From NCBI GenBank assembly GCA_033648345.1, contig GCA_033648345.1_4121.1: 64,000 nt of DNA; one strand, written 5' to 3'. This document shows positions 42,517-62,317 of this stretch, in pieces. Position 1 is the first letter of the stretch; each line of letters begins with the position of its first letter. The DNA comes from a phage. A program made the position numbers and the translations under genes. The notes under the pieces were generated by a model. That model saw only the letters and a program-made list of their open reading frames with translations. It was not told the DNA's origin and made no database searches.

Positions 42517-42536
42517 CTATATAAGAGGATTAAAAA

Positions 42537-42861: not shown

Positions 42862-43128
42862 ATGAATATTAAGTATTTTGCGACGCGTGAACAAGCTCGG
42901 ATCGCCGCACGCCAGGACGGGGCAACGTTTAAAGATATGGGCGTACAATCGGAACGTGGTAAACGTTGGGCCATTATAAAGCGTAGTACCGCCAGATCAT
43001 TACAGTACTGGTTAGCGGCGTTAAAAAGTCCCGATAGTGTATCGCGTCGAGTGGTAGAAATAAAGCTCGACCGAAAGGGCAACCGCGTGACCGTGTACCG
43101 TACTAAAAAGATTGCAGTACTTGAATAA
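42862..43128 (+). CDS. hypothetical protein (88 aa), paralogue of 55885-56280
   Basis: AAGGG SD; shares FATREQARI…FKDMG…KRWA…DRKGNRVTVY with 55885. Confidence 0.6.
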   Translation: MNIKYFATREQARIAARQDGATFKDMGVQSERGKRWAIIKRSTARSLQYWLAALKSPDSVSRRVVEIKLDRKGNRVTVYRTKKIAVLE

Positions 43129-43695: not shown

Positions 43696-43723
43696 TTGCA
43701 AACTATGTTTAAAGGCGTATAAT
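43696..43723 (+). promoter_or_regulatory. early-type promoter (upstream member of a tandem pair)
   Basis: TTGCAA 43696-43701, TATAAT 43718-43723. Confidence 0.55.
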
Positions 43724-43730
43724 GTTTTAC

Positions 43731-43810
43731 ATCAGGACGGGGAACGAAATAAGTAACTCCCCGTTAAGTAGCCCAGGAGTAAGGCACACGAAAAACTCCC
43801 CTGATAAAAT
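43731..43810 (+). ncRNA. conserved non-coding leader between tandem promoters (element L)
   Basis: ATCAGGACGGGGAACGAAATAAGTAACTCCCCGTTAAGTAGCCCAGGAGTAAGG…ACGAAAAACTCCCC; no start codon; repeated at 54691 and 46677. Confidence 0.35.
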
Positions 43811-43813
43811 AGT

Positions 43814-43841
43814 TTGACAAATGTTTTTAAAAGCGTATAAT
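43814..43841 (+). promoter_or_regulatory. sigma70-type promoter (downstream member of tandem pair)
   Basis: TTGACA 43814-43819, TATAAT 43836-43841. Confidence 0.55.
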
Positions 43842-43873
43842 ACTTACATCAACTACTGAATGAGGGTTACAAA

Positions 43874-44485
43874 ATGAAAACTATCACTACTACTACTTTC
43901 GTTATGGATTTTTCTGAATTGAACGCAGAACAAAAAACGTCAGCTATCGAACTGGTTCGGGAACGTGAAAAAAACTCAAACGACAATTATTTTTCTGAAA
44001 GTGAAATTGAATACTATAAAGAAACAGTACTACCGGAATATGGCATTAATGACGCTGAAATACAATTCAGTGGTTTTTGGTCCCAGGGTGACGGTGCATC
44101 AATCAGTACTGACCACGTTGACGGTGTGAAGTTTTTACGCAAGGTAAGAGCATTAACTAAGTATCGCTCAATCCGTCACTTGCTGAATGAAGATGATTTG
44201 GCGATGAGTGTAAAGCGTTCTCATTCTTTGTACTTGCATGAGAATACTGTAAGCGGGTACATTGAATCGGCTTACACTGATTTAACCGCAAAACAAGAAA
44301 CGTTAGTTAATGAGCTTGAGGAACTACTCACTGAAACTATTCGTGAATTATCCCGCAAGTTGTACCGTGATTTAGAGAATGCATATGAGGATCAATTCAC
44401 TACTGAAAACATCGTATCACTGATTGAGGGTAACGAATATCAATTCAATGTTATTGATGGCGTAGTAGAATCAATCGAATATTAA
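43874..44485 (+). CDS. hypothetical protein (203 aa)
   Basis: GAGGG SD. Confidence 0.65.
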   Translation: MKTITTTTFVMDFSELNAEQKTSAIELVREREKNSNDNYFSESEIEYYKETVLPEYGINDAEIQFSGFWSQGDGASISTDHVDGVKFLRKVRALTKYRSIRHLLNEDDLAMSVKRSHSLYLHENTVSGYIESAYTDLTAKQETLVNELEELLTETIRELSRKLYRDLENAYEDQFTTENIVSLIEGNEYQFNVIDGVVESIEY

Positions 44486-44575: not shown

Positions 44576-44815
44576 ATGGCTAGTACTAAAACTTATAACG
44601 GACACAAAAACAAAACTCAATGGAATGTAAGCCTTTGGATTAATAACGGTGAGTCATTGTATCGGCTTGCACAAAGTTGTATCGCACAAAGTAGAACTAA
44701 AGATATTGCAGCGGAATGCATGTACCGCAGATTAAAAGCCAACGGTACTACTACAACGCCGGACGGCTTTAAGTATAGCACTACTGCGATCCGTGCTGCA
44801 ATGGTTGGAATGTAA
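44576..44815 (+). CDS. hypothetical protein (79 aa), paralogue of 42537-42776
   Basis: Promoter + GGCGGGGAGTGGTTCCCCGC hairpin + GAGGA SD then ATG 44576. Confidence 0.65.
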   Translation: MASTKTYNGHKNKTQWNVSLWINNGESLYRLAQSCIAQSRTKDIAAECMYRRLKANGTTTTPDGFKYSTTAIRAAMVGM

Positions 44816-46329: not shown

Positions 46330-46560
46330 ATGACTAAGCGAATTGTTTTACTTAACGAAAGCAGTACTACACAACTACTTAACGCCGTGCATTATGATAT
46401 TGAAACGAGCGTTAATCTTATCAGTACTGTAGTACTGTTGGACACTGGAAAGGTCGCCAATGATAAAGCGATTGCAGGTATATTAACGGATCTTGAGCCT
46501 GGTAGCAGTGCACCAATAACGTTAAATGGTAAAGTGTTTAATATTTTACTCACTGATTAA
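46330..46560 (+). CDS. hypothetical protein (76 aa)
   Basis: ORF followed by strong terminator. Confidence 0.55.
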   Translation: MTKRIVLLNESSTTQLLNAVHYDIETSVNLISTVVLLDTGKVANDKAIAGILTDLEPGSSAPITLNGKVFNILLTD

Positions 46561-46592: not shown

Positions 46593-46676
46593 TTGTAGTA
46601 TCGTAGTACTGAGATACTTTGAAAATAGTTTTAAAAAAGTAGTTGACATTACCGCAGAAAAGCGTAGAATGTATTA

Positions 46677-46750
46677 CATCAAGACGGGGAGCACTAAGTA
46701 GACCGCCAGTAAGTCGAACGAAAAACTGGACACGTCGAGAAAACTTTGAT
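46677..46750 (+). ncRNA. conserved non-coding leader (element L, divergent copy)
   Basis: TTGACA 46643/TAGAAT 46665 then ATCAAGACGGGGAGCACTAAGTAGACCGCCAGTAAG…ACGAAAAACTGG. Confidence 0.3.
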
Positions 46751-46793
46751 ACACTAATAAACGTAAACTAAACTTTAATTGAGGATTTATAAA

Positions 46794-47412: not shown

Positions 47413-47550
47413 AGTTAAGGCCGTTAGAATGCGATTTAGAGCGTTTAAAGTATTTTGCAAAAAGTAATAAAAAGTACTTGCACGATTCAGAGATTAGCGT
47501 ATAATGTTTTACATCAAGGCGAAACACCTTAACTAACTGAGGATATAAAG

Positions 47551-47703
47551 ATGAATACTTATGAACTGGATTGTTTCACTATGCAAGTAATGTTAGTATG
47601 CAGTAAAAAAGAATGGTCATCAAAGGAATTTAAAGCAGTTATTGCGTGTGCAAAACACGGCAAGACTATCAATGAAACGGCATCAATCATTGATAAACTT
47701 TAA
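47551..47703 (+). CDS. hypothetical small protein (50 aa)
   Basis: Below track threshold; promoter (TATAAT 47500) + GAGGA SD then ATG. Confidence 0.5.
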   Translation: MNTYELDCFTMQVMLVCSKKEWSSKEFKAVIACAKHGKTINETASIIDKL

Positions 47704-47773
47704 AAAATAGTTTGACAATAGTTTTAAGTACTGACATAATACATACATCAACTACTGAATAGGAATCAAAACA

Positions 47774-48001: not shown

Positions 48002-48086
48002 AAAAGTACTTGCAAAGTAAATCAAATAAAGTATAATACATTACATCAAGGGGAGAAATGGTTCTCCCCACTACAAGGAAACTAAA

Positions 48087-48236
48087 ATGAAAACTTGTCA
48101 ATGTGGTCAGAAATCTATTACGGGTTTAAAGCGGGGCGTTGCTCTTTGCCAGTACCATTATAATTTACAAGTATGGGGTAAAGAATGGGCCGACCAGGTG
48201 GAAGCAGCAAAGAAAGCAAAAAGTAAGTAAAAATAT
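48087..48236 (+). CDS. small Cys-containing protein (49 aa), possible zinc ribbon
   Basis: Below track threshold; promoter + hairpin + AAGGAA SD; CQCG…CQYH. Confidence 0.5.
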
Positions 48237-48248
48237 TATCACAGTACT

Positions 48249-48277
48249 ATTGACATAGTTTGATAGTACTGGCATAA
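48249..48277 (+). promoter_or_regulatory. sigma70-type promoter (duplicated module, copy 1)
   Basis: TTGACA 48249-48254, spacer GTTTGATAGTACTGG, CATAAT 48272-48277; about 80 bp repeated at 48525-48605. Confidence 0.6.
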
Positions 48278-48311
48278 TAGATTTTATCAAGACAACTAAG
48301 AGGAAACAATA

Positions 48312-48524
48312 ATGGCTATCATCACAAAAATCAAAGTAAACAAATCACTGGTTAAGCTGGAAGAAGTGAAAGAAGGTTATAAAGTATCGTGGTGCGGCAT
48401 GTATCGGATTTTTACAGATGTTGACGATGCAATCAATTACTACACTGACACGGTAAAAAACTTTGTTCGTGCTGATGTGGTTATGGCAGTGGCAACACAC
48501 AAAGCATCGAAAGAAAGTAAGTAA
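48312..48524 (+). CDS. hypothetical protein (70 aa)
   Basis: AGAGGA SD. Confidence 0.6.
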   Translation: MAIITKIKVNKSLVKLEEVKEGYKVSWCGMYRIFTDVDDAINYYTDTVKNFVRADVVMAVATHKASKESK

Positions 48525-48543
48525 AAATATTATCACAGTACTA

Positions 48544-48572
48544 TTGACATAGTTTGATAGTACTGGCATAAT
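48544..48572 (+). promoter_or_regulatory. sigma70-type promoter (duplicated module, copy 2)
   Basis: Identical to copy at 48249. Confidence 0.6.
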
Positions 48573-48605
48573 AGATTTTATCAAGACAACTAAGAGGAAA
48601 TTAAA

Positions 48606-48950
48606 ATGGCTAACATCAACACTATCGCAGCACAAAATATCAACCTGTCTTCTGTTGAAGTTGTACATATTGCCGCTCGGCGTTGGTTCCAGGCTTCATA
48701 TGGTAACACTTATTTCTCTTTAAGTGTAGACGTAGAAATTGATGGTAATTTTATTGAAGTAGTAAACGTGCCGTTCCAATATGGATACGGGGATCATTTT
48801 GACACTGTAGCAATGGAAGAATTTAGCAAGGTTATTAATATGGAAGGTAAAGAGTTTTTACGCGGTTCTTATCTTTCACGTTTTTGCCGTGATAATAATA
48901 TCACTGTTTACAGTTCGGTAACTGATGTTAAACGCAAAAAAGATCTTTAA
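48606..48950 (+). CDS. hypothetical protein (114 aa), paralogue of 55466-55789
   Basis: Shared GNTY…YGYG…VKRKKD with 55466. Confidence 0.65.
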   Translation: MANINTIAAQNINLSSVEVVHIAARRWFQASYGNTYFSLSVDVEIDGNFIEVVNVPFQYGYGDHFDTVAMEEFSKVINMEGKEFLRGSYLSRFCRDNNITVYSSVTDVKRKKDL

Positions 48951-49030
48951 TTAGCTTTACTTTATGCAGATACTTTGATATAGTGTCTGCATAGGGGAAA
49001 GAAATTAAATTAACTTAAGAGGATAGTATA

Positions 49031-49300
49031 ATGAAAAATATCAGTACTTTAATTGATGCAGGTACACATGTTCGGCGGTCTATGGTTGCAACCAGTACTA
49101 CAAAACAAGTAGCAAGCGGTTATCTTGTATTTGTGCACGATGGAAAACTCCTGGAACGTTCAATCAATTTTGATGTTAAAAACAATTGCCGTTTTATTAT
49201 TTTTAAGCGTGAACAATATAAAATTGATTTACCAGCGAAGCCCATTAGCGGGGCGTATAACGTCTATTCATTGTTTGAGCGTCAACCATACACCTATTAA
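49031..49300 (+). CDS. hypothetical protein (89 aa)
   Basis: AGAGGA SD. Confidence 0.6.
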   Translation: MKNISTLIDAGTHVRRSMVATSTTKQVASGYLVFVHDGKLLERSINFDVKNNCRFIIFKREQYKIDLPAKPISGAYNVYSLFERQPYTY

Positions 49301-49351
49301 TCAAAACATCGTTAGCGGTCGATTTAGGCCGCTTATATTGGGGATTATACC

Positions 49352-49624
49352 ATGAACGTTAATCAAGTACTGAATGAGATCGAAAGCATCATTAAACCAA
49401 TGAAACGCATTGATGCTATGTTAACACCGGAAGAATGCCGCCTTTATGAGCGTTACAGCGTCGAACAAGTCCAGGCAATGGCTATGGCTACCCCAGCCGT
49501 TAAACAGCCTGAGAACGCGTTACAGGACGTTACAGGGGATTATATCATCAATCCAGTACTAGGGAAGATGGCGGCAATCACCGAAGATCAACAAGACTAC
49601 TTAAGCCAGTACTTAAAAGGTTAA
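49352..49624 (+). CDS. hypothetical protein (90 aa)
   Basis: ORF, weak SD. Confidence 0.55.
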   Translation: MNVNQVLNEIESIIKPMKRIDAMLTPEECRLYERYSVEQVQAMAMATPAVKQPENALQDVTGDYIINPVLGKMAAITEDQQDYLSQYLKG

Positions 49625-49629
49625 TTAAT

Positions 49630-49839
49630 ATGCTTACTGTACAGGATAAGATCGACATCTTAAAGGTTAATATGTATGTGATTGATGCCGTACCTGGTAA
49701 AGTATTTGCATACGATGACACTACTGTAAGCGATTTCTACTATAGCCAGGCCGTGGGGGATCTTTCTGTACAGTCGGTTATTGAAAACGTAGTTAATGCA
49801 GCGTATGAGCATTTACTTTCAAATAGTACTTGCAATTAG
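49630..49839 (+). CDS. hypothetical protein (69 aa)
   Basis: ORF closely following previous stop. Confidence 0.55.
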   Translation: MLTVQDKIDILKVNMYVIDAVPGKVFAYDDTTVSDFYYSQAVGDLSVQSVIENVVNAAYEHLLSNSTCN

Positions 49840-49908
49840 TTTTTAAACGCGTATAATGTTTTACATGAAGGGGAGAAATGATTCTCCCCACTAATTAAGG
49901 AATATGAA

Positions 49909-50055
49909 ATGAAAGCATCAAAAAAGAGTAATACTAAGAAAGCACGTTCACCTTTCGCTGGGGTATTCCCTTTACGTTTCGTTGATGAAGTGGTTTCCTA
50001 CCCGCCGGGCCTTACTCCTGAGATGGTAGAAAGTTTGCGTAAATCTAAAAAATAG
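49909..50055 (+). CDS. hypothetical basic small protein (48 aa)
   Basis: Below track threshold; promoter + GGGGAGAAATGATTCTCCCC hairpin + AAGGA SD. Confidence 0.45.
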   Translation: MKASKKSNTKKARSPFAGVFPLRFVDEVVSYPPGLTPEMVESLRKSKK

Positions 50056-50136
50056 TACTTGCAATTAGTTTTTAAACGCGTATAATGTTTTACATAGAGG
50101 GGAGAAATGGTTCTCCCCAATAACAGGAGAATCAAA

Positions 50137-50289
50137 ATGAAACAATACAATGCTCGGTTTGATGTTACTATCGGCAACGGCAAAGGTCAATTTTCTTTCA
50201 GTACTCGCCGCAGTTATACAGAAAACTTCCTGCGTAATTGTGCACTGACCGCCGCACAAATTAAACATTACTTCCAGGCTAAAAAATGA
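50137..50289 (+). CDS. hypothetical small protein (50 aa)
   Basis: Promoter + hairpin + AGGAGA SD; track start 50107 is inside the hairpin. Confidence 0.55.
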   Translation: MKQYNARFDVTIGNGKGQFSFSTRRSYTENFLRNCALTAAQIKHYFQAKK

Positions 50290-50375
50290 AATCATTAGCT
50301 TATTACAGTTCAGCGGTGATCGGTGCATTGATCGCGGCATTGTTAGTAACCTATCTATTCTTTATGGTGATTTAA
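50286..50375 (+). CDS. tiny hydrophobic peptide (29 aa)
   Basis: ATGA overlap with previous stop; MKSLAYYSSAVIGALIAALLVTYLFFMVI. Confidence 0.35.
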   Translation: MKSLAYYSSAVIGALIAALLVTYLFFMVI

Positions 50376-50510
50376 ATGAATCCTAACGGTTTAATTTACA
50401 GTACTCCTAAAACGAAAGCAGATAAAGCGAAAGCACGTAAAGCGAAAGTAAAGGAGTACATTAAGCAAGGCATGACGCGAAAGGCGGCAGTACTGAAAGC
50501 TAAAAAATAA
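50376..50510 (+). CDS. Lys-rich small protein (44 aa)
   Basis: ATG immediately after previous stop (TAAATG). Confidence 0.35.
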   Translation: MNPNGLIYSTPKTKADKAKARKAKVKEYIKQGMTRKAAVLKAKK

Positions 50511-50520
50511 ATGAAAAAAG

Positions 50521-50554
50521 TGGTTGACTTCGGTCAGCCATTTTGCTATTATAT
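50521..50554 (+). promoter_or_regulatory. terminator-hairpin/promoter composite (PeSL-like)
   Basis: GGTTGAC-TTCG-GTCAGCC hairpin + TTTTGCTATTATAT. Confidence 0.6.
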
Positions 50555-50555
50555 A

Positions 50556-50606
50556 TTCATTGAGAGATAGCTCACTAGCCCACCGGGTGCATAAGTGTAT
50601 CTATTA
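50556..50606 (+). ncRNA. candidate small RNA/leader (element E) downstream of PeSL
   Basis: TTCATTGAGAGATAGCTCACTAGCCCACCGGGTGCATAAGTGTATCTATTATAT. Confidence 0.3.
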
Positions 50607-50724
50607 TATAAGTATTGAGTACTGAAAACTATTTTTAAAAAGTACTTGCAAACTATCTCAATAAGCGTATAATGTTTTACATCGAAAGGGGAAACGGTTT
50701 CCCCTGGTAATAAGGAAACAAATC

Positions 50725-51066
50725 ATGACTATTGCAATTGCTCAATCTAACTTTGAAAATGAAATCATCGCCCAGGCACTGCGTTTAAATGATGGTCGGG
50801 CCGAAATTAATTACGGTTTCAATTCAGGCGGTTGTGAAAAATATCAGTACTTTGTAACTGCTGATGGCGGTGTCCTGGGCATCAATACCGTTATTGTAAA
50901 CATTCAGAAAATTAATTTCAATGATCCAGACGATAGCCAGTTTTACATTGTAGGCGTAGACGTGAACTATGAGGATGACTCACTAACTGATGATCACACT
51001 GGCGAGCGGTTAGAAAGTGCATACGGTGAAGATGATTATCAGTCCGGTCCAGAAGATTTCGAATAA
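50725..51066 (+). CDS. hypothetical acidic protein (113 aa)
   Basis: Promoter + GGGGAAACGGTTTCCCC hairpin + AAGGAAA SD. Confidence 0.65.
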   Translation: MTIAIAQSNFENEIIAQALRLNDGRAEINYGFNSGGCEKYQYFVTADGGVLGINTVIVNIQKINFNDPDDSQFYIVGVDVNYEDDSLTDDHTGERLESAYGEDDYQSGPEDFE

Positions 51067-51157
51067 TATAAAAAATAGTTTGACAATAGATTATAGTACT
51101 GTATAATTAATTACATCAAGGGGAGAATAGTTCTCCCCAACTAAGAGGAAAAAGAAA

Positions 51158-51340
51158 ATGGCTGAATTAATCGCTCGGAATACAATTGCAGGCGTTGAAG
51201 ATGTAACATTATCATATGATTCAGATAAACAAGTTTACGTCGTTCGTTATGGTCTGATTGGTGTTAACGTTGATTATATTGATGAAGCCTTTGAAAAATA
51301 CTTTGAATTTATTAATATGGCTTATAATGATTATCGTTAA
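51158..51340 (+). CDS. hypothetical protein (60 aa)
   Basis: Promoter TTGACA…TATAAT + hairpin + AGAGGA SD. Confidence 0.6.
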   Translation: MAELIARNTIAGVEDVTLSYDSDKQVYVVRYGLIGVNVDYIDEAFEKYFEFINMAYNDYR

Positions 51341-51430
51341 AAAATAGTTTGACAATAGATTATAGTACTGTATAATAGTTTACATCAAGGGGAGAAAAAC
51401 TTCTCCCCACTAACAGAGAGAGAAAACAAA

Positions 51431-51643
51431 ATGGCTAATATCTGCACTGTACTGAAAAATGCAAAACAAGTTTTATTTTCTGATCACGATCATTTAAACA
51501 AGGATATTACGGGCGTTCGGAATATCAAAGATGTAAAAAGTGTTATGGGTATCTATTGCAATATGAAACGTGTCGGCACGTTCGGCGATAAAGTACTATA
51601 CCAGGCAGGGGATTATAACTTCACATTAACCATCATCAATTAA
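51431..51643 (+). CDS. hypothetical protein (70 aa)
   Basis: Near-duplicate of the promoter upstream of 51158. Confidence 0.6.
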   Translation: MANICTVLKNAKQVLFSDHDHLNKDITGVRNIKDVKSVMGIYCNMKRVGTFGDKVLYQAGDYNFTLTIIN

Positions 51644-51733
51644 AATATATTACCAGTACTATTGACAACGTTTGATAGTACTGTATAATAAGTTTTATAA
51701 ACAGTAGTTAACTTAACCTAAGAGAGAAACAAA

Positions 51734-51877
51734 ATGATCGCACTGGATTCATTCATCGACGCAGTACTGGCAAAAACTGGCGAGGATCTGACCGCAGAAC
51801 AATACGCGATGATCGAGCAATGTCAGCAAAACGGTAAATCGGTGAAAGATACTGTTAAGATTATCCGCAAGATGTAA
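51734..51877 (+). CDS. hypothetical small protein (47 aa)
   Basis: Below track threshold; promoter TTGACA…TATAAT + AGAGAGA SD. Confidence 0.45.
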   Translation: MIALDSFIDAVLAKTGEDLTAEQYAMIEQCQQNGKSVKDTVKIIRKM

Positions 51878-51886
51878 TATTATAGC

Positions 51887-51912
51887 CCACTGGTTAACGC
51901 TGGTGGGCTTTA
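51887..51912 (+). terminator. hairpin terminator containing a Chi octamer
   Basis: AGCCCACTGG-TTAAC-GCTGGTGGGCT hairpin; weak U-tract. Confidence 0.45.
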
Positions 51913-51982
51913 ATCATTTACCCTATACAATGCCAGTACTCAACCGTTTATCTCGTTAGAATGCGTTACAGGACGTTTGACA

Positions 51983-52180
51983 ATGATTAGCATGAAATCA
52001 GTACAAAAACAAATAGAAACATTATCAAAAATTAAACGTAAACAATACTCCTTAGAATATACAATCAATGGTAACTATCATCTAATGAAAGAAAATAATT
52101 TTATAGTCATTGATGAATCATTGCAAATTATTAGTATAGTACTGAAAGCATTAATCAATGACAGAAAAAAATTAAAATAA
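51983..52180 (+). CDS. hypothetical protein (65 aa)
   Basis: ORF; start uncertain (ATG 51983 or 51992). Confidence 0.45.
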   Translation: MISMKSVQKQIETLSKIKRKQYSLEYTINGNYHLMKENNFIVIDESLQIISIVLKALINDRKKLK

Positions 52181-52183
52181 TTG

Positions 52184-52212
52184 TTGACATACAATGCCAG
52201 TACTGGCATAAT
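52184..52212 (+). promoter_or_regulatory. sigma70-type promoter driving element E copy
   Basis: TTGACA 52184-52189, 17-nt spacer with AGTACTG, CATAAT 52207-52212. Confidence 0.55.
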
Positions 52213-52217
52213 ACTTA

Positions 52218-52266
52218 CATCAAGACGAGAACGTCACTAACCCATAGGGTGCACAAATGTAACTAT
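52218..52266 (+). ncRNA. candidate small RNA/leader (element E)
   Basis: CATCAAGACGAGAACGTCACTAACCCATAGGGTGCACAAATGTAACTAT; no ORF. Confidence 0.3.
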
Positions 52267-52508
52267 ATAATATCGATCAATAAATGATCAAAAAAGTACT
52301 GGATCAATTTAGCATAAGGAGTATAATTCTGATCAATTCTTGATCAAAGGCAATATACGCAGTTGAATTTATATAGACAGTACAAAGGCGTTACTATCCG
52401 TGGTAATGCTGGTGGATATGTAGTATCATATGGTTTGAATAAGATTAGCACTAGTAGTATTATTGTAGCATTACAGTACTATAGTATTTTTATAATGAGG
52501 TTAAAATA

Positions 52509-52766
52509 ATGGCTGTTGGATTCGCGAAGGACGGGGCCGAGCAAGACGAGATTAACGCAGTGATTCAGGCCGCTGTAAACCACGCTAGAAAGCAAATTAA
52601 CGCACAAAGAGAATCACTGGTACATTGCCTCGACTGCGGCGATAAAATCCCTGAGAATCGACGCCAGGCCGTTATAGGGTGCATGTATTGTATTACTTGC
52701 CAGGAGGATCATGATAGTACTTTTAAAAGAGATCCGCGTAATTGTTGGCATAGATCTATGAGATAA
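52509..52766 (+). CDS. TraR/DksA-type C4 zinc-finger protein (85 aa)
   Basis: CLDCGDKIPENRRQA…CMYCITC four-cysteine motif. Confidence 0.7.
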   Translation: MAVGFAKDGAEQDEINAVIQAAVNHARKQINAQRESLVHCLDCGDKIPENRRQAVIGCMYCITCQEDHDSTFKRDPRNCWHRSMR

Positions 52767-52830
52767 AAAGTAATTGACAGTACTGAAAGATAGTGTATAA
52801 TGTTTTATATCTTAACTGAGGATTGAAATC

Positions 52831-53187
52831 ATGGGTATTCAACACATCACGCGTACTACTGACAATGGCGAGATCACTGGTTATCAGGTACAGGGCAAAG
52901 TAGCACAATTGCAGTACTGGTTTGTTAAACGTGGAATCATTGCACCGGATCTTGATTATGACCGTGTAGCGTTTATTGATTCTCTTTATGTTGATCCTGA
53001 TAGTCGGGGCAATGGTGAAGGTAACGAATTAATGAATGCCTTTATTGATGCCGCCGATGATTCAGATTGTATCATCTTAGAATGCGATACGGGAGAAGAT
53101 AACGCCTTTAATCTTAAAGAATGGTACGAAGGCTTCGGATTCGAGGTATTGATAGATAGTGAATATCCTATCATGATTTTATCATAG
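52831..53187 (+). CDS. possible GNAT-family acetyltransferase (118 aa)
   Basis: IDSLYVDPDSRGNGEGNELMNAFID resembles acetyl-CoA binding motif A; assignment tentative. Confidence 0.45.
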   Translation: MGIQHITRTTDNGEITGYQVQGKVAQLQYWFVKRGIIAPDLDYDRVAFIDSLYVDPDSRGNGEGNELMNAFIDAADDSDCIILECDTGEDNAFNLKEWYEGFGFEVLIDSEYPIMILS

Positions 53188-53266
53188 TACTTGCATTTAG
53201 TTTTCAGTACTGTTATAGTACTTGCATCAAGGGGAAACATCTTCCCCTACTAAGAGGAAATAAAAA

Positions 53267-53455
53267 ATGGAAAACTTATCAAGTATTTTAGTACAAGATG
53301 ATTTCGGTAATCCTGGAAGTGCTATCATTGTTCGGGGCAATAAAGCAACGTTTGTTATTGCTGGTGGACCCGTACAGCGTAGCATTAAAAATAATGCTGT
53401 TACCATTAATAATGTACGCTATCGCTTAGATAAAGAATTAATTCATAAACTGTAA
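53267..53455 (+). CDS. hypothetical protein (62 aa)
   Basis: Promoter + hairpin + AGAGGA SD. Confidence 0.6.
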   Translation: MENLSSILVQDDFGNPGSAIIVRGNKATFVIAGGPVQRSIKNNAVTINNVRYRLDKELIHKL

Positions 53456-53482
53456 TATTAATTTAATAGAGGATAACAATAA

Positions 53483-53806
53483 ATGTACATTCATACTACT
53501 ATCACAAAGGAAGTCCGTTGCCAGTTCGAAAGTATTCCGGGCGTATGTTTCATCACTGGTACGTTTTCCCCTGGTGATCGTGATAATCCAGTACTGTTAC
53601 AATTACGCCATCCATCATGGGATAAAGCATTTGATCTACCGTTGAATGAATTCGCAACTACTGCTGAAAAGTACATTAAAAATATTCGCGAGAATGATCG
53701 ACTATTCATTAATGCTTTTAGTGATTCCGCGTTAAGCGAGATCCACGGCGTATTGGTTGCAATCATGGAATCAATGCAGAAAACTAAATTCAAACAAGGT
53801 GAATAA
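53483..53806 (+). CDS. hypothetical protein (107 aa)
   Basis: AGAGGA SD. Confidence 0.6.
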   Translation: MYIHTTITKEVRCQFESIPGVCFITGTFSPGDRDNPVLLQLRHPSWDKAFDLPLNEFATTAEKYIKNIRENDRLFINAFSDSALSEIHGVLVAIMESMQKTKFKQGE

Positions 53807-53889
53807 AAACTATTGACAATGCAATCCAGTACTGTATAATAGTTTACATGAAGGGGAGAAATGATTCTCCCCACTAAGAGGAAAGAAAA

Positions 53890-54102
53890 ATGCAAGGTCA
53901 ACTAATCGTTCGTAAATGGTCTGATACTAACGAAAAACCGTGGGATGTACAATACATCGCCCCAAATGGTGAATCCAGATATCAACCAGGTGTAACGCAT
54001 AGTACTGAGCAATTCGCCGCCGCTCATCGCGAACGTCTGTTACAATCAATGCAGCAAGGTTCCGGTGAAAAATTCATTCAGGATCATTGGCTGAAAGATT
54101 AA
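53890..54102 (+). CDS. hypothetical protein (70 aa)
   Basis: Promoter + GGGGAGAAATGATTCTCCCC hairpin + AGAGGA SD. Confidence 0.6.
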   Translation: MQGQLIVRKWSDTNEKPWDVQYIAPNGESRYQPGVTHSTEQFAAAHRERLLQSMQQGSGEKFIQDHWLKD

Positions 54103-54188
54103 AAAGTACTTGCACTGTACTGAATAAAGTGTATAATGTTTTATATCGGAAGGGGAATAGTTCCCCTCCGAACAAAGAGGAAAGTATA

Positions 54189-54362
54189 ATGGTCCAGGTA
54201 GAATTAACAGTACTGAAAGATCTGTTTTATCGGATTGGTACTACTGGCGAATATCCGAAGGGTGATAATGCAAAACTTTACGTATCACTCGACTTATGGC
54301 AACGCGAACAATTAGCAACGGCCTGGCGTAAAGGCAAAGCAGATCGAGAGGTGAAAGCATGA
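54189..54362 (+). CDS. hypothetical small protein (57 aa)
   Basis: Promoter + GGAAGGGGAATAGTTCCCCTCC hairpin + AGAGGA SD; track start 54087 is in the promoter. Confidence 0.55.
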   Translation: MVQVELTVLKDLFYRIGTTGEYPKGDNAKLYVSLDLWQREQLATAWRKGKADREVKA

Positions 54363-54508
54363 AAGAATTCTTATTTGAAGTAGTGTTTCAAGGTGTCGGC
54401 AATAACCAACTGATTCGATCAAGTGGTTATAATGTTAACCAGGCATGGAATAACATTAAACAAATGTACCCGAACGCTATCACATATCGCAACCCGAAAG
54501 AAGTTTAA
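54359..54508 (+). CDS. hypothetical small protein (49 aa)
   Basis: ATGA overlap with previous stop. Confidence 0.4.
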   Translation: MKEFLFEVVFQGVGNNQLIRSSGYNVNQAWNNIKQMYPNAITYRNPKEV

Positions 54509-54522
54509 AAATAATTGAAAAA

Positions 54523-54558
54523 GGGATTGACTCCGGTCAGTCCCTTTGCTATTATATA
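54523..54558 (+). promoter_or_regulatory. terminator-hairpin/promoter composite (PeSL-like)
   Basis: GGGATTGAC-TCCG-GTCAGTCCC hairpin + TTTGCTATTATATA. Confidence 0.6.
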
Positions 54559-54603
54559 CGCATAGAAACAAATTAGCCCACCGGGTGCATAAATGTATCT
54601 ATT
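54559..54603 (+). ncRNA. candidate small RNA/leader (element E) downstream of PeSL
   Basis: …AATTAGCCCACCGGGTGCATAAATGTATCTATTG followed by a Chi octamer at 54608. Confidence 0.3.
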
Positions 54604-54690
54604 GTTTGCTGGTGGCTAGTACTATCAAGTACTGAAAACTATTTTTAAAAAGTACTTGCAAAGTATCACGATAAGCGTATAATGTTTTAC

Positions 54691-54770
54691 ATCAGGACGG
54701 GGAACGAAACAAGTAACCCCGTTAAGTAGTCCAGGAGTAAGACATACGAAAAACTCCCCTGATAAAATAG
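54691..54770 (+). ncRNA. conserved non-coding leader between tandem promoters (element L)
   Basis: Near-identical to 43731-43810. Confidence 0.35.
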
Positions 54771-54832
54771 TTTGACAATAGAAAGTAAACGAGTATAATA
54801 CTTACATCAACCACTGATAAGGAAACATTAAA

Positions 54833-55108
54833 ATGCGGATTCTACTGACAGCTAACGAAATCGAACAAGTACTGACTACTAACCTGGAAGACTGGAAACG
54901 TGAAGCAGATATCCAGGCGGTTCAATGGCTTAACGATAAGTTAACGCCGGATGACTTAAGCAAGATTGTAGATCCTCAATTCTACGAAGATATTCACGAC
55001 ACCGCGTTAAGCGTCGAGGATGTACTTGATAAGCACTACATTGATACTGATTTACATGTTTACGGTCGTAAAAACTTTATCACTATTCACGACATTTACA
55101 ATACTTAA
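54833..55108 (+). CDS. hypothetical protein (91 aa)
   Basis: AAGGAAA SD. Confidence 0.6.
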   Translation: MRILLTANEIEQVLTTNLEDWKREADIQAVQWLNDKLTPDDLSKIVDPQFYEDIHDTALSVEDVLDKHYIDTDLHVYGRKNFITIHDIYNT

Positions 55109-55196
55109 GTATTGACAAAGTATCTTAGTACTGTATAATAGTTTACATCAAGTGAGGGGAAACGGTTCCCCTCCTAACAAAGAGAGAGAAATAAAA

Positions 55197-55379
55197 ATGG
55201 CTAAGTGCACTATCTGCAAGAAAGAAATAGTATTAGTTCCAAGTGCCCGTGAACGTGCCGCTCGGTTTGGTGGCAAAGCGTCAGACTATACAAAAATGTT
55301 TACTGCCCATACAGCTTGCCAGGTAGCAAAACGTTCACAAGAAAGCGTAGAATTAATGCGTAAACTTTCCAAAAAATAA
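55197..55379 (+). CDS. small Cys-containing protein (60 aa)
   Basis: Promoter TTGACA…TATAAT + GAGGGGAAACGGTTCCCCTC hairpin; MAKCTICKK…HTAC. Confidence 0.55.
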   Translation: MAKCTICKKEIVLVPSARERAARFGGKASDYTKMFTAHTACQVAKRSQESVELMRKLSKK

Positions 55380-55465
55380 GTATTGACAAAGTATCTTAGT
55401 ACTGTATAATAGTTTACATCAAGTGAGGGGAAACGGTTCCCCTCCTAACAGAGAGAGAAATAAAA

Positions 55466-55789
55466 ATGGCTATGATCCTTACCCAGAAAGTGGAATTGAA
55501 AATTGTAACCTCCTTTGACATTAAAGTTAATCGGTGGACTGATTCACACGGCAATACTTACCACTCTTGCTACGTGTCTGCGTTAATTGGCGACCGCTGG
55601 GAAGACCTGGGACACGAAACCTTTACATACGGTTACGGTACGCAAGGCGAATACACTGGTTTGGAGATCATTAAAGAAACCGTTATAGGTTTCAACCCGA
55701 AAGAAAAAGTTATTCACCGCATCGAAAAAGAGATTAACAAAGAAATAACAGTTCGCTACTACGATGTAAAACGTAAGAAAGACATGTAA
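55466..55789 (+). CDS. hypothetical protein (107 aa), paralogue of 48606-48950
   Basis: Exact duplicate of the promoter module upstream of 55197. Confidence 0.65.
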   Translation: MAMILTQKVELKIVTSFDIKVNRWTDSHGNTYHSCYVSALIGDRWEDLGHETFTYGYGTQGEYTGLEIIKETVIGFNPKEKVIHRIEKEINKEITVRYYDVKRKKDM

Positions 55790-55884
55790 TAGAATCCATT
55801 TAAAGTACTATTTGACATTGCCCAGATAGTACTTTATAATAGACTCTAACTTGTAGTACTAACTCAACTAATAGGATGTATACC

Positions 55885-56280
55885 ATGATTACTAAATTCT
55901 ACGCTACCCGTGAAGCTGCCCGTATTGTTGCACGCGAGGAAGGAGCAGCATTTAAAGACATGGGAACGACAGCACCGAAAGGTCAACGCTGGGCCGTACA
56001 GTTCAAAGAAATCTCTGATATTGTGAATTCACCTGAGCCAGTACTGACAGCAGCAGAACTAAAACGAGCGGATATGCTGGCGGCAATACTTGACGCACAA
56101 GATGAGTTTATCGCTGATTCTGATATCAAAGTACAGGTAAACCACACCGCATGGACTCACGCGGATCACCTGGCAAACCTTAAGCGTCCAAGTGAACTGA
56201 TTCGCAACCAGAAAGAGATCCGACATGATCGTAAGGGTAATCGTGTAACAGTATACAGTAAACGCCGCCAGGTTATCTAA
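55885..56280 (+). CDS. hypothetical protein (131 aa), paralogue of 42862-43128
   Basis: Promoter TTGACA…TATAAT; AGGATG SD then ATG 55885. Confidence 0.6.
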   Translation: MITKFYATREAARIVAREEGAAFKDMGTTAPKGQRWAVQFKEISDIVNSPEPVLTAAELKRADMLAAILDAQDEFIADSDIKVQVNHTAWTHADHLANLKRPSELIRNQKEIRHDRKGNRVTVYSKRRQVI

Positions 56281-56302
56281 TAACTTGCAGTACTAACAAC
56301 AC

Positions 56303-56328
56303 GGCGGGATCAGTTCCCGCCTTTTTTA
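56303..56328 (+). terminator. rho-independent terminator
   Basis: GGCGGGATCAGTTCCCGCC hairpin + TTTTTT. Confidence 0.7.
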
Positions 56329-56341
56329 TAGGACAAACAAA

Positions 56342-56596
56342 ATGATTAAGGTTCAACTATATAAAGATAACATCTTACGGGTACACTATAAAGCACCGAA
56401 GAGAATCATCACAAAGGCCGTACAGCTTGCTAATGAGTTTATTAATGGTAACCTATTACCGAGGAAGTTAAGCAACGGGAAACTGCGTGTAATCGACGTG
56501 GACACTAACAACAGGATAGTAATCGAGAACACAGGAAAGATAAACCTTTATGAGCATCAACAATACAATAAGAAAATAAAACTAATATCACGTTGA
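56342..56596 (+). CDS. hypothetical protein (84 aa)
   Basis: ORF, weak SD. Confidence 0.5.
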   Translation: MIKVQLYKDNILRVHYKAPKRIITKAVQLANEFINGNLLPRKLSNGKLRVIDVDTNNRIVIENTGKINLYEHQQYNKKIKLISR

Positions 56597-56649
56597 CAGT
56601 ACTCAATTGTTTTAGTATTATGTACACATACCAACACGGGAGAAACAAA

Positions 56650-56868
56650 ATGAAATTATCTAAAATCGAAAAGAAAACTATTGATGAAGCAGTTAAGCAC
56701 GGTTATACCTTTCGTAATGATTCACATTTTACCAATTATCAACAAGGGTATCGTACTATTAAAAAACTTATTGACAAAGGTTTATTAGTTGAAGTCAATA
56801 ACGGCAATGGCATTGAGTATCAACCAACACAGGACGCATTTTATTTTAAGAAATATAATATTATCTAA
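56650..56868 (+). CDS. hypothetical protein (72 aa)
   Basis: Promoter TTGACAGTACTCAA…; GGGAGA SD then ATG 56650. Confidence 0.55.
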   Translation: MKLSKIEKKTIDEAVKHGYTFRNDSHFTNYQQGYRTIKKLIDKGLLVEVNNGNGIEYQPTQDAFYFKKYNII

Positions 56869-56926
56869 TTGACAGTACTCAAATGTTTTAGTACTATATG
56901 TACATACCAACACGGGGGAAAACAAA

Positions 56927-57169
56927 ATGATTACTTTAGAAAAACGTATCAAAGAAACTACATCGCTGGTGGAATTGTTAACAGTACTCAAATGTAAAAC
57001 AACACCATTCAGCACGCCGGACTTTATTAATATGGTTGATGTTAACGGTCGTTATCGCATTGCAGTAGAACATGGAACAGCGAAAGTATTCAGTACTAAA
57101 AACACTAAGGAAGTGATTCACGCGGTTAGTGTGAAAAAAGTGGTTGCCATTGATAGTAAAGTACTGTAA
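56927..57169 (+). CDS. hypothetical protein (80 aa)
   Basis: Near-duplicate of the promoter upstream of 56650. Confidence 0.6.
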   Translation: MITLEKRIKETTSLVELLTVLKCKTTPFSTPDFINMVDVNGRYRIAVEHGTAKVFSTKNTKEVIHAVSVKKVVAIDSKVL

Positions 57170-57785: not shown

Positions 57786-57800
57786 AAAAAGATTAAAAAA

Positions 57801-57836
57801 GGGATTGACTCCGGTCAGTCCCTTTGCTATTATATA
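57801..57836 (+). promoter_or_regulatory. terminator-hairpin/promoter composite (PeSL-like)
   Basis: GGGATTGAC-TCCG-GTCAGTCCC hairpin + TTTGCTATTATATA. Confidence 0.6.
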
Positions 57837-57892: not shown

Positions 57893-58008
57893 GCATTCAG
57901 TACTGAAAACTATTTTAAAAAAGTACTTGCATTGTACTTAGAATCAAGTATAATGTTTTATATCGAGAGGGGGAAATGGTTCTCCCTGGTACATTAAGGA
58001 ATAAAATC

Positions 58009-58416
58009 ATGACTACTACTAATCAAGCTCGGTCCATCGCCAACGATAAAAATCATGCTGCAATGGTCGCTGGTTACATTGAAGCTATGCAATTCAGTAC
58101 TGTACACAATGAGAACGGCGAATACCTGGAAGATTATGAATTATCAGAGCAAGCCCATCAAGCGGCAGTGATTGCATGTTCACGTTTCCTTGCTGTACAT
58201 GGTGAAGATATGGAAACAGTACAAAAACACCATAATCCTGATTATACTTATAGTCATGCAGGTCATGATCTCTTTCTTACTCGCGAAGGTCACGGCACTG
58301 GTTTTTGGGATCGTGATATCGGTCACTATGATGATATATTCACTAAGTACTGCGAAGAAATCAACGTTTGCGATCCCTATGTAGGCGATGATAATCTAAT
58401 CTATATGGGCGAATAA
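58009..58416 (+). CDS. hypothetical protein (135 aa)
   Basis: Promoter + GGGGGAAATGGTTCTCCC hairpin + AAGGAA SD; track start 57976 is in the hairpin. Confidence 0.6.
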   Translation: MTTTNQARSIANDKNHAAMVAGYIEAMQFSTVHNENGEYLEDYELSEQAHQAAVIACSRFLAVHGEDMETVQKHHNPDYTYSHAGHDLFLTREGHGTGFWDRDIGHYDDIFTKYCEEINVCDPYVGDDNLIYMGE

Positions 58417-59052: not shown

Positions 59053-59316
59053 ATGAACACTATCGAAATCACTATCAATGCACACGTATACGACAACGTA
59101 GTACTGCAAACTACTATGACCGCTAATGATACCAGTACTTTGCGGAATACTGTTATTAGTGCCGTATGTGCTGCAATCGGTGATGTATCCCTGGAAAATG
59201 CAGAACATATCAACAACGGTTTCACTATGTGCAAGCGTGATAACGCAAAACATATCATCGTGGAAGGTTACGGCGGTGTAGAATTTAATGTTTATATGAA
59301 AAAAGTACTTGCATAA
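59053..59316 (+). CDS. hypothetical protein (87 aa)
   Basis: Promoter + hairpin + AGGAGA SD then ATG 59053. Confidence 0.6.
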   Translation: MNTIEITINAHVYDNVVLQTTMTANDTSTLRNTVISAVCAAIGDVSLENAEHINNGFTMCKRDNAKHIIVEGYGGVEFNVYMKKVLA

Positions 59317-60233: not shown

Positions 60234-60251
60234 CAAAAAAAGAATAAAAAA

Positions 60252-60288
60252 GGGATTGACTCCGGTCAGTCCCTTTGCTATTATATAC
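60252..60288 (+). promoter_or_regulatory. terminator-hairpin/promoter composite (PeSL-like)
   Basis: GGGATTGAC-TCCG-GTCAGTCCC hairpin + TTTGCTATTATATA. Confidence 0.6.
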
Positions 60289-60332: not shown

Positions 60333-60480
60333 ATATATAGTTAATAACGGTGAGTAACTATCTGCTGGTGGAGTGAAAACTATTAATAAAAAAAACTATT
60401 GACAAAGTATATCAGTACTGCAATAATGTATCTCGTAGGGCGGCAATGGTGCGACGGCCCACAAAGTTAGGAGATTCAAA

Positions 60481-61582: not shown

Positions 61583-61865
61583 TGCGTAAAAGGATTTAGT
61601 ACTGAATCATAAAAAAGTCAAGGCATTTTTAAACTTCAGCGTTAAAAAAATGCATAGGTAATCCCTTGACTTTTATGAATAAAAAGGGATTGGACTATGG
61701 CAAAATGCGTAGGGGGCTTAACTGCGGGTAACCTTAGCGACTTCGAAAAAAGGAGTGATAGGGGCTTGACTTTTTATATAATTCTGATAATATATAGTCT
61801 ATATTATATTTCATTCATATTTTATATGTTAGTTACATTAACTCAACATTAGAGGTCACAGAACT

Positions 61866-62231
61866 ATGAATCCATCATCTAATAAATGTGGTACTTCCTT
61901 TAATGTAGAATGGTTATTTTTTAAACCCACATCTACTATAAAATCATTCATTGCTGATATCACTGAAGCACCTGACACCCTTGTATCAGTTGTTAACAAC
62001 AATAACGAAATGGTATTTTCTATTGATGAAAATCAATATGCAGATATCTATTCATTGAGTCGTATAAAAAACTTAGTTGTACTGTCCGAGAAAGCGTTCG
62101 CAAAAGAAGCGAAGAAATGGGATTTTAAACTTCCTATTGAATTGGTACGTGAAATACAAAAATTGGGATGTACTACTATTGAGAATTGTAAAGACTCACG
62201 TGCTACTGGGAATATTTCATTTGAAGTATAA
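61866..62231 (+). CDS. hypothetical protein (121 aa)
   Basis: AGAGG SD; upstream region has a different promoter style (CTTGACT…TATAAT-like). Confidence 0.6.
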   Translation: MNPSSNKCGTSFNVEWLFFKPTSTIKSFIADITEAPDTLVSVVNNNNEMVFSIDENQYADIYSLSRIKNLVVLSEKAFAKEAKKWDFKLPIELVREIQKLGCTTIENCKDSRATGNISFEV

Positions 62232-62254
62232 TGCATTTATATGAACAAAACATC

Positions 62255-62283: not shown

Positions 62284-62317
62284 GTTTTTTCACATATGAA
62301 CCTATGGATTTTATCCT

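Follow-up and report, generated by a model that had tools for sequence, protein, structure and literature searches.

The presumed early region of a jumbo coliphage, contained in a 64,000-nt stretch of NCBI GenBank assembly GCA_033648345.1 (contig GCA_033648345.1_4121.1; hereafter the window), consists of about 50 arrayed, self-contained expression cassettes, each of which serves one gene and opens with a promoter-leader module of 80–100 nt. The modules are members of one sequence family, with about 50 copies distributed across a whole predicted direct terminal repeat (DTR) of 21.4 kb. Comparison with related phages indicates that cassettes were gained, lost, and moved at these modules, probably through homology-guided exchange between them. 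A sequence-only reading of the window had described four pairs of repeated promoter modules and three pairs of scattered paralogous genes, and had proposed that the repeats could drive illegitimate recombination that generates new gene-promoter combinations. The four pairs are real, but this description understates the pattern, as the pairs are the best-matched members of the much larger family and a fifth pair was missed.

The predicted terminal repeat and its gene content

Megablast searches against 50,697 phage records were performed with two queries, namely 48–57 kb (9 kb) and 40–64 kb (24 kb) of the window. The matches were to Escherichia jumbo phages of the genus Asteriusvirus (121Q, PBECO4, G17, phAPEC6, vB_Ec-M-J, and others), with 90–96% identity. 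These matches are broken into 4–16 pieces, and the best record covers at most 74% of the 9-kb query and at most 69% of the 24-kb query. In the vB_Ec-M-J record (OQ718158), positions 1–21525 are annotated as "Direct Terminal Repeats" and are colinear with window positions 40317–61814, while the right-end copy of the repeat in the same record ends at window position 61734. By this colinearity, window positions 40317–61734 match the DTR of a 121Q/PBECO4-type jumbo coliphage (Asteriusvirus).

The DTR contains about 53 small genes separated by intergenic gaps of 50–95 nt. Beyond 61.8 kb, neighboring genes share 4-nt overlaps and lack both promoters and modules of their own. Non-coding DNA accounts for 29% of the region, and modules make up 75% of this non-coding share and 24.5% of the sequence. 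The annotated DTR products include a DksA-like zinc-finger protein and an acetyltransferase, as well as a protein kinase in some relatives. For the ten proteins scanned against Pfam and PHROG, no known function was found.

Anatomy of the module family

In a repeat search, a 68-nt unit was recovered at least 22 times. After gene starts were curated by hand, the catalog of the family included about 41 gene-proximal modules for the approximately 53 DTR genes, plus about 10 promoters without a gene directly behind them. In the 5' part of a module, an A-rich, UP-element-like tract includes the upstream stop codon, often with AGTACT touching the -35 box. The promoter has TTGCAA or TTGACA as its -35 box, a spacer of 16–17 nt that often ends in CAGTACTG, and TATAAT as its -10 box. 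The -10 box is followed by a conserved initial transcribed sequence, GTTTTACATC, and the 3' part consists of a strong Shine-Dalgarno site (GAGGA or AAGGA) and then ATG, often as ATGGCT. The most conserved columns are the -35 box, the -10 box, GTTTTACAT, and the Shine-Dalgarno site.

Twelve promoters match the sigma70 consensus (TTGACA-16/17-TATAAT) perfectly at 12 of 12 positions, all on the plus strand and within 20 kb. A loose scan that accepted at least nine of 12 matches found 117 sites, compared with 67.4 ± 8.2 in shuffled sequences. From these sequence features, we infer that the cassettes of the early region would be read by the host RNA polymerase immediately after injection.

Pairwise identity averages 0.59 across 37 modules, a background that the reported pairs far exceed. 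These modules form 666 pairs, of which the four most similar are all immediate neighbors, and adjacent modules are more alike than they are in random orderings (permutation p = 0.006).

In addition to the modules described above, a composite type of unit has four copies in the DTR (Table 1). In this type, the -35 box lies inside a terminator hairpin and the T-run behind the hairpin forms the promoter spacer (AAAGGGATTGACTCCGGTCAGTCCCTTTGCTATTAT). The composite units were picked up by the terminator scan, and the equivalent sites in G17 are annotated as terminators. Seven more composite units (GGGTTGACTTCGGTCAGCCCTTTTTG-TATAAT, with the -35 box in the hairpin) are present outside the DTR on the plus strand at 237, 3831, 4487, 7248, 11611, 12155, and 12495.

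Another variant was observed at 43696–43873, 54656–54832, and 46643–46793, where a strong promoter is followed by a non-coding leader of about 90–120 nt. The first two of these units are 88–89% identical over 101–200 nt, and in both a second perfect promoter follows the leader, right before the gene. Among the three units, a leader fold was predicted for the 46643 copy only.

Near-identical modules in adjacent positions

All four of the module pairs reported from the sequence alone were recovered in place by the repeat search and the pairwise module comparison (Table 1). Their description as almost exact repeats holds for 48228/48522 and 55095/55366, whereas 51066/51335 and 56583/56859 are only 82–87% identical. 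The match between 48228 and 48522 comprises 68 nt at 100% identity and 124 nt at 90%, and the longer match takes in the end of the upstream gene, with its final two sense codons and stop codon (AGT AAG TAA), as well as the first codons of the downstream gene. Identity is also found at non-functional positions of the best pairs, such that the repeats extend beyond short consensus boxes.

Each near-identical pair consists of adjacent copies that bracket one short gene dissimilar to its neighbors. The earlier observation that each copy precedes a different gene was also confirmed, as the flanked genes are dissimilar (pairwise E ≥ 0.2) and belong to different PHROG families. For every pair except 56583/56859 (four of the five), relatives are polymorphic for the bracketed gene; the 56583/56859 pair itself is kept in all five of the relatives compared below. 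The two copies of the 48228/48522 pair differ in their similarity to other phages. Compared with its orthologs in vB_Ec-M-J and 121Q, the left copy has 99% identity, whereas the right copy has only 85–87% identity to the orthologous module in relatives. Because the right copy is nearer to its neighbor (96%) than to these orthologs, we conclude that it was overwritten in this lineage.

Cassette gain, loss, and reordering among relatives

The region was compared with those of five relatives (vB_Ec-M-J, CRJP21, JP4, G17, and 121Q), and colinear chaining yielded about 22 events. This comparison of gene order revealed cassette gains and losses at modules, two hybrid promoters, and relocated cassettes. 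In most events, one gene is present in one phage and missing in another. The alignments at single-gene events overlap in register by 20–108 nt, and by 56–108 nt where whole modules are common to both phages. Among 51 distinct homology breakpoints, 33 are in modules, which occupy 24.5% of the sequence (binomial, 1.5e-9), and nine more are at most 16 nt from a module edge.

Several of these events involve genes bracketed by near-identical modules. The gene at 49909–50055 is missing in CRJP21, with an alignment overlap of 74 nt, and is carried by 22 of 36 phage records. The gene at 51158–51340 is missing in JP4 and 121Q, where one module corresponds to two modules plus the gene in the window (98-nt overlap); the window arrangement around this gene was found in none of the 65 matching records. 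The cassette at 55197–55379 is also missing in JP4 and 121Q. It is present in 29 Asteriusvirus records and missing in seven (representing six phages), with a single module left. Furthermore, the gene at 59053–59316 is missing in 121Q, and extra genes are found in relatives at the window modules 42454–42533, 51641–51702, 54759–54835, 57948–58016, and 60383–60452.

The proposed formation of new gene-promoter combinations is borne out by the two hybrid promoters, which could be read base by base. In vB_Ec-M-J, which lacks the single-gene cassette that includes gene 47551–47703, the alignment shows one module composed of the promoter of window module 47471 and the Shine-Dalgarno/ATG part of module 47701. 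In G17, which lacks the acetyltransferase cassette, the hybrid promoter combines the -35 box of module 52774 with the -10 box, hairpin, and Shine-Dalgarno site of module 53191, and the two parts are joined in the spacer after a common GTACT.

Relocation was observed for two genes. A gene of the 51158 family is located before gene 51431 in the window, and its counterpart with 39% identity is located after gene 51431 in all five relatives, and gene 45688 is located three slots earlier in 121Q. Overall, 14 of the 53 DTR genes are missing in at least one of the five relatives. The four-gamete test was failed by 18 of 66 pairs of variable genes, which shows that the history is reticulate.

One length difference was noted within a gene. 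Gene 43874–44485 (203 aa) and its vB_Ec-M-J ortholog (225 aa) differ by 63 nt, in frame, at the 5' end, and a 67-nt alignment overlap at 43857–43923 reflects this difference.

Cassettes shared with an unrelated phage family

One cassette of the DTR is common to phages of the subfamily Stephanstirmvirinae, which have genomes of about 147 kb (Table 1). The homologous segment spans gene 55197, from the -10 box of the left module to just beyond the -10 box of the right module. One of these phages, Justusliebigvirus PHB05 (NC_052652, 12349–19800), has the same promoter-hairpin-Shine-Dalgarno cassette design, with modules in which about 10 nt separate TTGACA-16-TAtAAT from a G/C hairpin, whose stem differs in sequence, and a ribosome site comes next. 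PHB05 also has homologs of eight DTR genes of the window in a changed order (58505, 42082, 48606, 55197, 42537, 47774, 51431, and 58009), one of which has 93% amino acid identity. In phAPEC8-like phages, the homology to gene 51431 starts just past the hairpin of the 51431 module.

A more far-reaching explanation of these patterns is that the cassettes are autonomous mobile units, each with a promoter, a 5' hairpin, a ribosome site, and one small gene, that are pooled between unrelated families of large virulent coliphages, namely Asteriusvirus and Stephanstirmvirinae such as Justusliebigvirus, and are moved by excision and re-insertion at modules, possibly with assistance from a phage function that acts at the module. 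We regard this explanation as doubtful. If true, such a pool would parallel, among phages, the cassette pool of integrons and would hold genes of host takeover or anti-defense.

Proposed mechanism of cassette exchange

Homology-guided exchange between modules, by which cassettes are shuffled, is the explanation that we consider likely. It is suggested by the in-register hybrids, the identity of paired modules outside the functional boxes, and the module-bounded segment common to another phage family. Thus, the core of the idea that modules act as recombination sites gained support from the comparison with relatives, while its limitation to four pairs did not, given a family of about 50. In addition, the term "illegitimate" is not appropriate, because exchange in register within 56–108 nt of common module sequence is homologous.

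According to this model, the host polymerase would use the module promoters at once after injection, producing mRNAs whose hairpin lies only a few nucleotides from the 5' end. As the comparison with relatives shows, the modules, which are 60–96% identical over about 90 nt, serve as portable homology. Whole cassettes have been added, lost, replaced, or moved, with junctions in register inside modules, and some of these events left hybrid promoters. Homologous recombination between modules may proceed by unequal exchange, or by excision and re-insertion of circles that contain a gene plus a module, as proposed for the promoter-early stem-loop (PeSL) cassettes discussed below. The near-identical adjacent pairs would then be modules that bracket mobile single genes. 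Given that recombination needs close identity, it may either target near-identical modules or homogenize them.

Several observations weigh against module-based exchange. The pairs 49816/50045, 55095/55366, and 56583/56859 are equally similar in relatives and hence are old rather than fresh footprints. The gene bracketed by 56583/56859 is present in all five relatives. Two of the gains or losses hit genes without a module of their own (46330–46560 and 53483–53806). Moreover, selection against broken genes alone would push the surviving breaks into the non-coding 29% of the region, three quarters of which consists of modules. For this reason, breakpoint enrichment alone cannot separate recombination at modules from randomly placed breaks filtered by selection. 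The alignment overlap at junctions is also partly inevitable, as every gene has a similar module.

These points are in line with an explanation by functional convergence only, in which modules are alike due to like constraint, breaks are random and illegitimate with selection acting afterward, and modules are passive in recombination. That conservation peaks at the functional boxes also fits this explanation, as do the small non-coding share, which makes surviving breaks likely to fall in modules, and the two gains or losses of genes without modules. However, the identity of the best pairs extends to non-functional positions, including the spacer, the stretch that precedes the -35 box, the upstream stop codon, and the opening codons of the downstream gene. 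That all four of the best-matched pairs among 666 are neighbors is not predicted by function alone. Furthermore, the junctions are in register and leave modules of normal length, the hybrids are joined within the spacer, and the homology with the unrelated family stops at equivalent points of both flanking modules. Taken together, convergence appears to be an unlikely explanation for the array.

Mobilization by a dedicated site-specific system is less plausible still. In this scenario, a phage enzyme would act at the AGTACT palindrome or at the hairpin in an integron-like manner, and the module homology would be a by-product. AGTACT (often as CAGTACTG) is the commonest hexamer in the window, with 275 copies compared with 22 ± 4.7 expected (12-fold over-representation), and is densest at 32–60 kb. 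Its position in the modules is fixed at either of two sites, immediately upstream of the -35 box (15 promoters) or of the -10 box (14 promoters), and one of the hybrid-promoter joins adjoins the motif. However, other junctions are located elsewhere, including the leader after ACATC, the Shine-Dalgarno/ATG part (48089/48295), or a whole module. The enrichment is genome-wide and extends to long genes (66 copies in open reading frames (ORFs) of at least 150 aa, compared with 19.8 ± 4.1 in synonymous-codon shuffles), such that it is not specific to cassettes. The density is 4.4–6.7 per kb in all Asteriusvirus loci, whereas PHB05, despite having the same design and common cassettes, has no AGTACT in 27 kb. 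Finally, the largest DTR protein has 203 aa, which is too small for a typical tyrosine recombinase. Based on the junctions elsewhere, the enrichment in long genes, and the absence from PHB05, AGTACT was judged unlikely to be the cassette recombination site. A literature search on this motif found nothing relevant.

Tandem duplication followed by divergence, in which the pairs would be remnants of duplicated promoter-gene units with coding parts diverged beyond recognition and the scattered paralogs would be older products, was rejected as highly improbable: although duplication of whole cassettes does occur (42537/44576 and 42862/55885; see below), the genes behind the paired modules have no similarity (none at 1e-3) and fall into different families despite 82–96% identity of their modules, co-duplicated coding sequence under selection would be expected to be at least as conserved as the leader, and the true paralogs are not adjacent.

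Paralogous gene pairs

The three pairs of paralogous genes were verified by blastp and by common PHROG families (Table 1). The members of each pair are non-adjacent and located 2–13 kb apart. These paralogs had been regarded as separate from the repeated modules, which does not hold for 42537/44576 and 42862/55885, in which the similarity runs into the upstream module. For 42537/44576, a match of 185 nt at 79% identity spans the module and the gene start, and the upstream modules are 83% identical. The modules upstream of 42862 and 55885 have 66% identity, with TAGAAT..ATTTAAAGTACT and GATAGTACTTTATAATAG in common. This extension into the module shows that the duplicated unit in both cases was the whole cassette. 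For the third pair, the allele at 48606–48950 is unlike the gene that occupies the same slot in the five relatives, and that slot gene is 38–39% identical to 55466. The best match found for 48606–48950 is PHB05 gp221, with 69% amino acid and 76% nucleotide identity.

The leader hairpin

Twenty-four DTR modules, located at 42.0–60.9 kb, have a G-rich/C-rich hairpin in the leader. The stem has 6–9 bp (usually 8) and is of the type GGGGAGAA-loop-TTCTCCCC, with predicted energies of -9 to -16 kcal/mol. The hairpin starts 9–15 nt past the -10 box, and the ribosome site follows 5–10 nt further on. The window has 25 hairpin modules, of which 24 are in the DTR; an isolated module of the hairpin type lies outside the DTR at 9699–9762.

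A plain MAFFT alignment of the leaders misplaced the 3' arms because of variable loop length, and a covariance model (R1) was used instead. The model was built from 11 hairpins with 4-nt loops, and a strict threshold was applied to remove minus-strand readings. R1 had 93 matches (57 distinct) across the window and four relatives. In the R1-guided alignment, 90.6% of the cells are paired compared with 80.9% in shuffles, although pairing is somewhat favored because the alignment was fitted to the model. The number of cells changed on both sides is 60 compared with 18, a value reached by none of 500 shuffles, and sliding the partner column by one reduced the pairing to 67%. In addition, G.U or U.G was found 30 times and A.C seven times in the eight real stem pairs of the sense strand. 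These counts would swap on the other strand, which argues for selection on the sense transcript rather than on a DNA cruciform. The compensatory changes show that the predicted leader hairpin has been selected and kept as an RNA structure, which would act in the mRNA.

The leader hairpins are not scored by the terminator scan, as a T-run is missing behind them; a role as terminator was therefore rejected as their main function. Judging from sequence, the most likely role would be protection of the short mRNAs from 5'-end-dependent decay, or insulation of the cistrons from read-through. The E. coli ompA 5' untranslated region represents the type of 5'-terminal stem-loop that stabilizes mRNA, and in work on such stabilizers, 4–8 unpaired nucleotides at the 5' end are the limit of reported protection. 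The leader hairpins resemble this type in being stable, close to the predicted 5' end, located before an unpaired ribosome site, and conserved as structures rather than as sequences. A difference is that a transcription start 6–8 nt past the -10 box would leave 4–8 unpaired nucleotides before the hairpin, a distance that would be borderline for 5'-end protection. A function as mRNA stabilizer is put forward tentatively, as one possibility. The Rfam search of 39–64 kb returned only a chance match to the Trp leader, far below the threshold.

Additional features of the window

Ten units in the DTR consist of a sigma70-like promoter followed, 25–30 nt on, by the invariant sequence CCCAnnGGGTGC (0.5 expected by chance). 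None of the ten copies has an ORF behind it, and the units had no match in the Rfam search of 39–64 kb. A conserved small-RNA fold was not supported, as RNAalifold gave only a 4-bp hairpin. At 43.47–43.66 kb, two of the units converge and form a 95-nt hairpin (-38.5 kcal/mol, z -3.2). The CCCAnnGGGTGC unit might represent either a small RNA or a site of protein binding.

At the left end of the DTR, 1.76 kb (40317–42080) is non-coding and dense in short repeats. These include four copies of GGCTGGGT at about 41156–41187, TAGACGGCTAAACGGCTAGAT-like units at 41120–41240, and many copies of CAGTACTGAAT. A perfect promoter without a gene behind it is located at 40682 in this segment. The left end may contain signals for end recognition or injection. 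Near the other end, a segment of about 500 nt (61811–62315) that includes gene 61866–62231 starts about 80 nt beyond the right end of the DTR. This segment is missing in G17 and 121Q, and is substituted in vB_Ec-M-J.

Outside the DTR, about 17 successive genes of 260–450 aa on the minus strand (15869–34882) are mutually paralogous, most with 24–38% identity; the closest pair is 29998–28805 and 26397–25195, with 72% identity. On the plus strand, 35191–39973 and 62318–63814 contain tandem arrays of genes of about 60–85 aa that are paralogous within each array (27–58%). Within both arrays, the genes are closely spaced and lack their own promoters.

Table 1. Coordinates of the features discussed in the text (positions in the 64,000-nt window).
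Feature	Position	Strand	Description
Predicted direct terminal repeat (DTR), presumed early-gene region	40317–61734	+	Colinear with the vB_Ec-M-J DTR; encloses all modules, cassettes, and paralogs of the early region
Pair 1, left copy	48220–48311	+	No hairpin; TTGACA-17-CATAAT; before gene 48312–48524
Pair 1, right copy	48514–48605	+	Before gene 48606–48950; 96% identical to left copy
Pair 2, left copy	51066–51157	+	TTGACA-16-TATAAT plus hairpin; before gene 51158–51340; 86% to 51335–51430
Pair 2, right copy	51335–51430	+	Before gene 51431–51643; 86% over whole module
Pair 3, left copy	55095–55196	+	Before gene 55197–55379; 101 nt at 92% to 55366–55466, 94% over module
Pair 3, right copy	55366–55465	+	Before gene 55466–55789
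Pair 4, left copy	56583–56649	+	TTGACA-17-TATTAT, no hairpin; before gene 56650–56868
Pair 4, right copy	56859–56926	+	Before gene 56927–57169; 68 nt at 82% to left copy, 1-nt indel
Fifth pair, left copy	49816–49908	+	Before gene 49909–50055; 86–88% to 50045–50136
Fifth pair, right copy	50045–50136	+	Before gene 50137–50289
Single-gene cassette (gene 47551–47703)	47518–47761	+	Missing in vB_Ec-M-J, CRJP21, and JP4; both boundaries inside modules
Acetyltransferase cassette (gene 52831–53187)	52784–53205	+	Missing in G17, which has a hybrid promoter there
Cassette common to Stephanstirmvirinae phages	55132–55420	+	86–91% nucleotide identity (PHB05, ALITA, VEcB, others)
Gene, paralog of 44576–44815	42537–42776	+	65% identity, E 2e-33; phrog_871, Pfam DUF7249
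Gene, paralog of 42537–42776	44576–44815	+	phrog_871, Pfam DUF7249
Gene, paralog of 55885–56280	42862–43128	+	35% identity, E 2e-17; phrog_8127
Gene, paralog of 42862–43128	55885–56280	+	phrog_8127
Gene, paralog of 55466–55789	48606–48950	+	31% identity, E 1e-8; phrog_6246
Gene, paralog of 48606–48950	55466–55789	+	phrog_6246
Example of leader RNA hairpin	48049–48068	+	GGGGAGAA-atgg-TTCTCCCC
Composite terminator-promoter	50517–50552	+	Hairpin AAAGTGGTTGACTTCGGTCAGCCATTTT contains -35 box, then TATTAT
Further composite terminator-promoters	54520–54555, 57798–57833, 60249–60284	+	Copies of the 50517–50552 unit
CCCAnnGGGTGC units	41421, 41637, 43588, 45511	-	All in DTR
CCCAnnGGGTGC units	43531, 50579, 52241, 54577, 57860, 60306	+	All in DTR

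Comparison with known systems and implications

PeSL cassettes are known from T4-like phages, including RB49/phi1, T4/PST, and KVP40/nt-1 (Arbiol et al., 2010, PMC2839356; Comeau et al., 2014, PMC4122927). The PeSL is a motif of about 100 bp that combines an AT-rich tract and a polyG/polyC stem-loop with a sigma70 early promoter, and about 50 copies are found before orphan genes of variable regions (PMC2839356). A gene located between two PeSLs in one phage may correspond to one chimeric PeSL in a relative (PMC2839356). The terminator activity of the stem-loop and the presence of mini-circles, which are encapsidated and carry one gene with one chimeric module, were demonstrated experimentally, and PeSL-mediated modular shuffling has been published (PMC2839356, PMC4122927). 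By analogy of architecture, the module array described here is the PeSL pattern already known for T4-like phages and does not represent a new principle. Both types of element start at the upstream stop codon and have an AT tract, a sigma70 promoter, a G/C stem-loop, a Shine-Dalgarno site, and a start codon. In both cases, about 50 copies cluster in variable regions, ahead of small genes with unknown function, and both are associated with single-gene differences between close relatives, where one chimeric module in one phage corresponds to module-gene-module in another. The four composite terminator-promoters, with the -35 box inside the hairpin, resemble the commonest PeSL type.

Several differences were also found. 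The host of the present array is a Rak2-like jumbo phage of about 350 kb, and the array fills the DTR rather than internal hyperplastic regions. The hairpin is mostly located 9–15 nt after the -10 box, within the transcript and without a U-tract, and these leader hairpins are unlikely to act as terminators of the PeSL type. In addition, the modules bear the lineage-specific AGTACT palindrome.

In the Rak2-like phage CBB, 18 RpoD-like promoters with UP-like elements were predicted, mostly in the presumed early region, with three on a 22-kb repeat (PMC5259590). The CBB terminal repeat and the present DTR are alike in being repeats of about 20 kb with many small genes of unknown function and host-type promoters, but the 18 promoters predicted in CBB compare with about 50 in this repeat alone. 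In a literature search on promoters or cassette shuffling in Asteriusvirus and Rak2-like phages, only these CBB predictions were found. By full-text search, the word "promoter" is absent from the genome papers on the Asteriusvirus phages Sharanji, JP4, UE-S1, fEgEco12, and phAPEC6, and is used once in the EJP2 paper.

Blocks of host-takeover or pre-early genes in terminal repeats are represented by the terminal redundancy of SPO1 and the first-step-transfer region of T5. As in these blocks, the predicted terminal repeat here is packed with small genes of unknown function, many with a strong host-type promoter of their own. The descriptions of SPO1, T5, and CBB deal with expression timing and host shut-off, unlike the present focus on modules as recombination substrates. 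The array is also similar to integron cassettes in that single-gene units are gained, lost, and reordered, with a pool common to unrelated genomes. However, integron cassettes are promoterless and depend on an integrase with attC/attI sites, whereas the cassettes described here have their own promoters and junctions spread over the module, and no gene of integron-integrase size was found in the array.

These findings would extend the PeSL mechanism beyond the classical T4-like phages. Among about 40 sequenced relatives, no two have the same early gene set, a pattern that module-based reshuffling would explain. The terminal repeat is presumably the first DNA expressed in these jumbo phages, which are therapy candidates, and its genes are presumed to be tools of host takeover or counter-defense. 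The module rule locates the boundaries of the cassettes, and for engineering, the modules may provide ready-made strong promoter-leader parts and natural insertion points.

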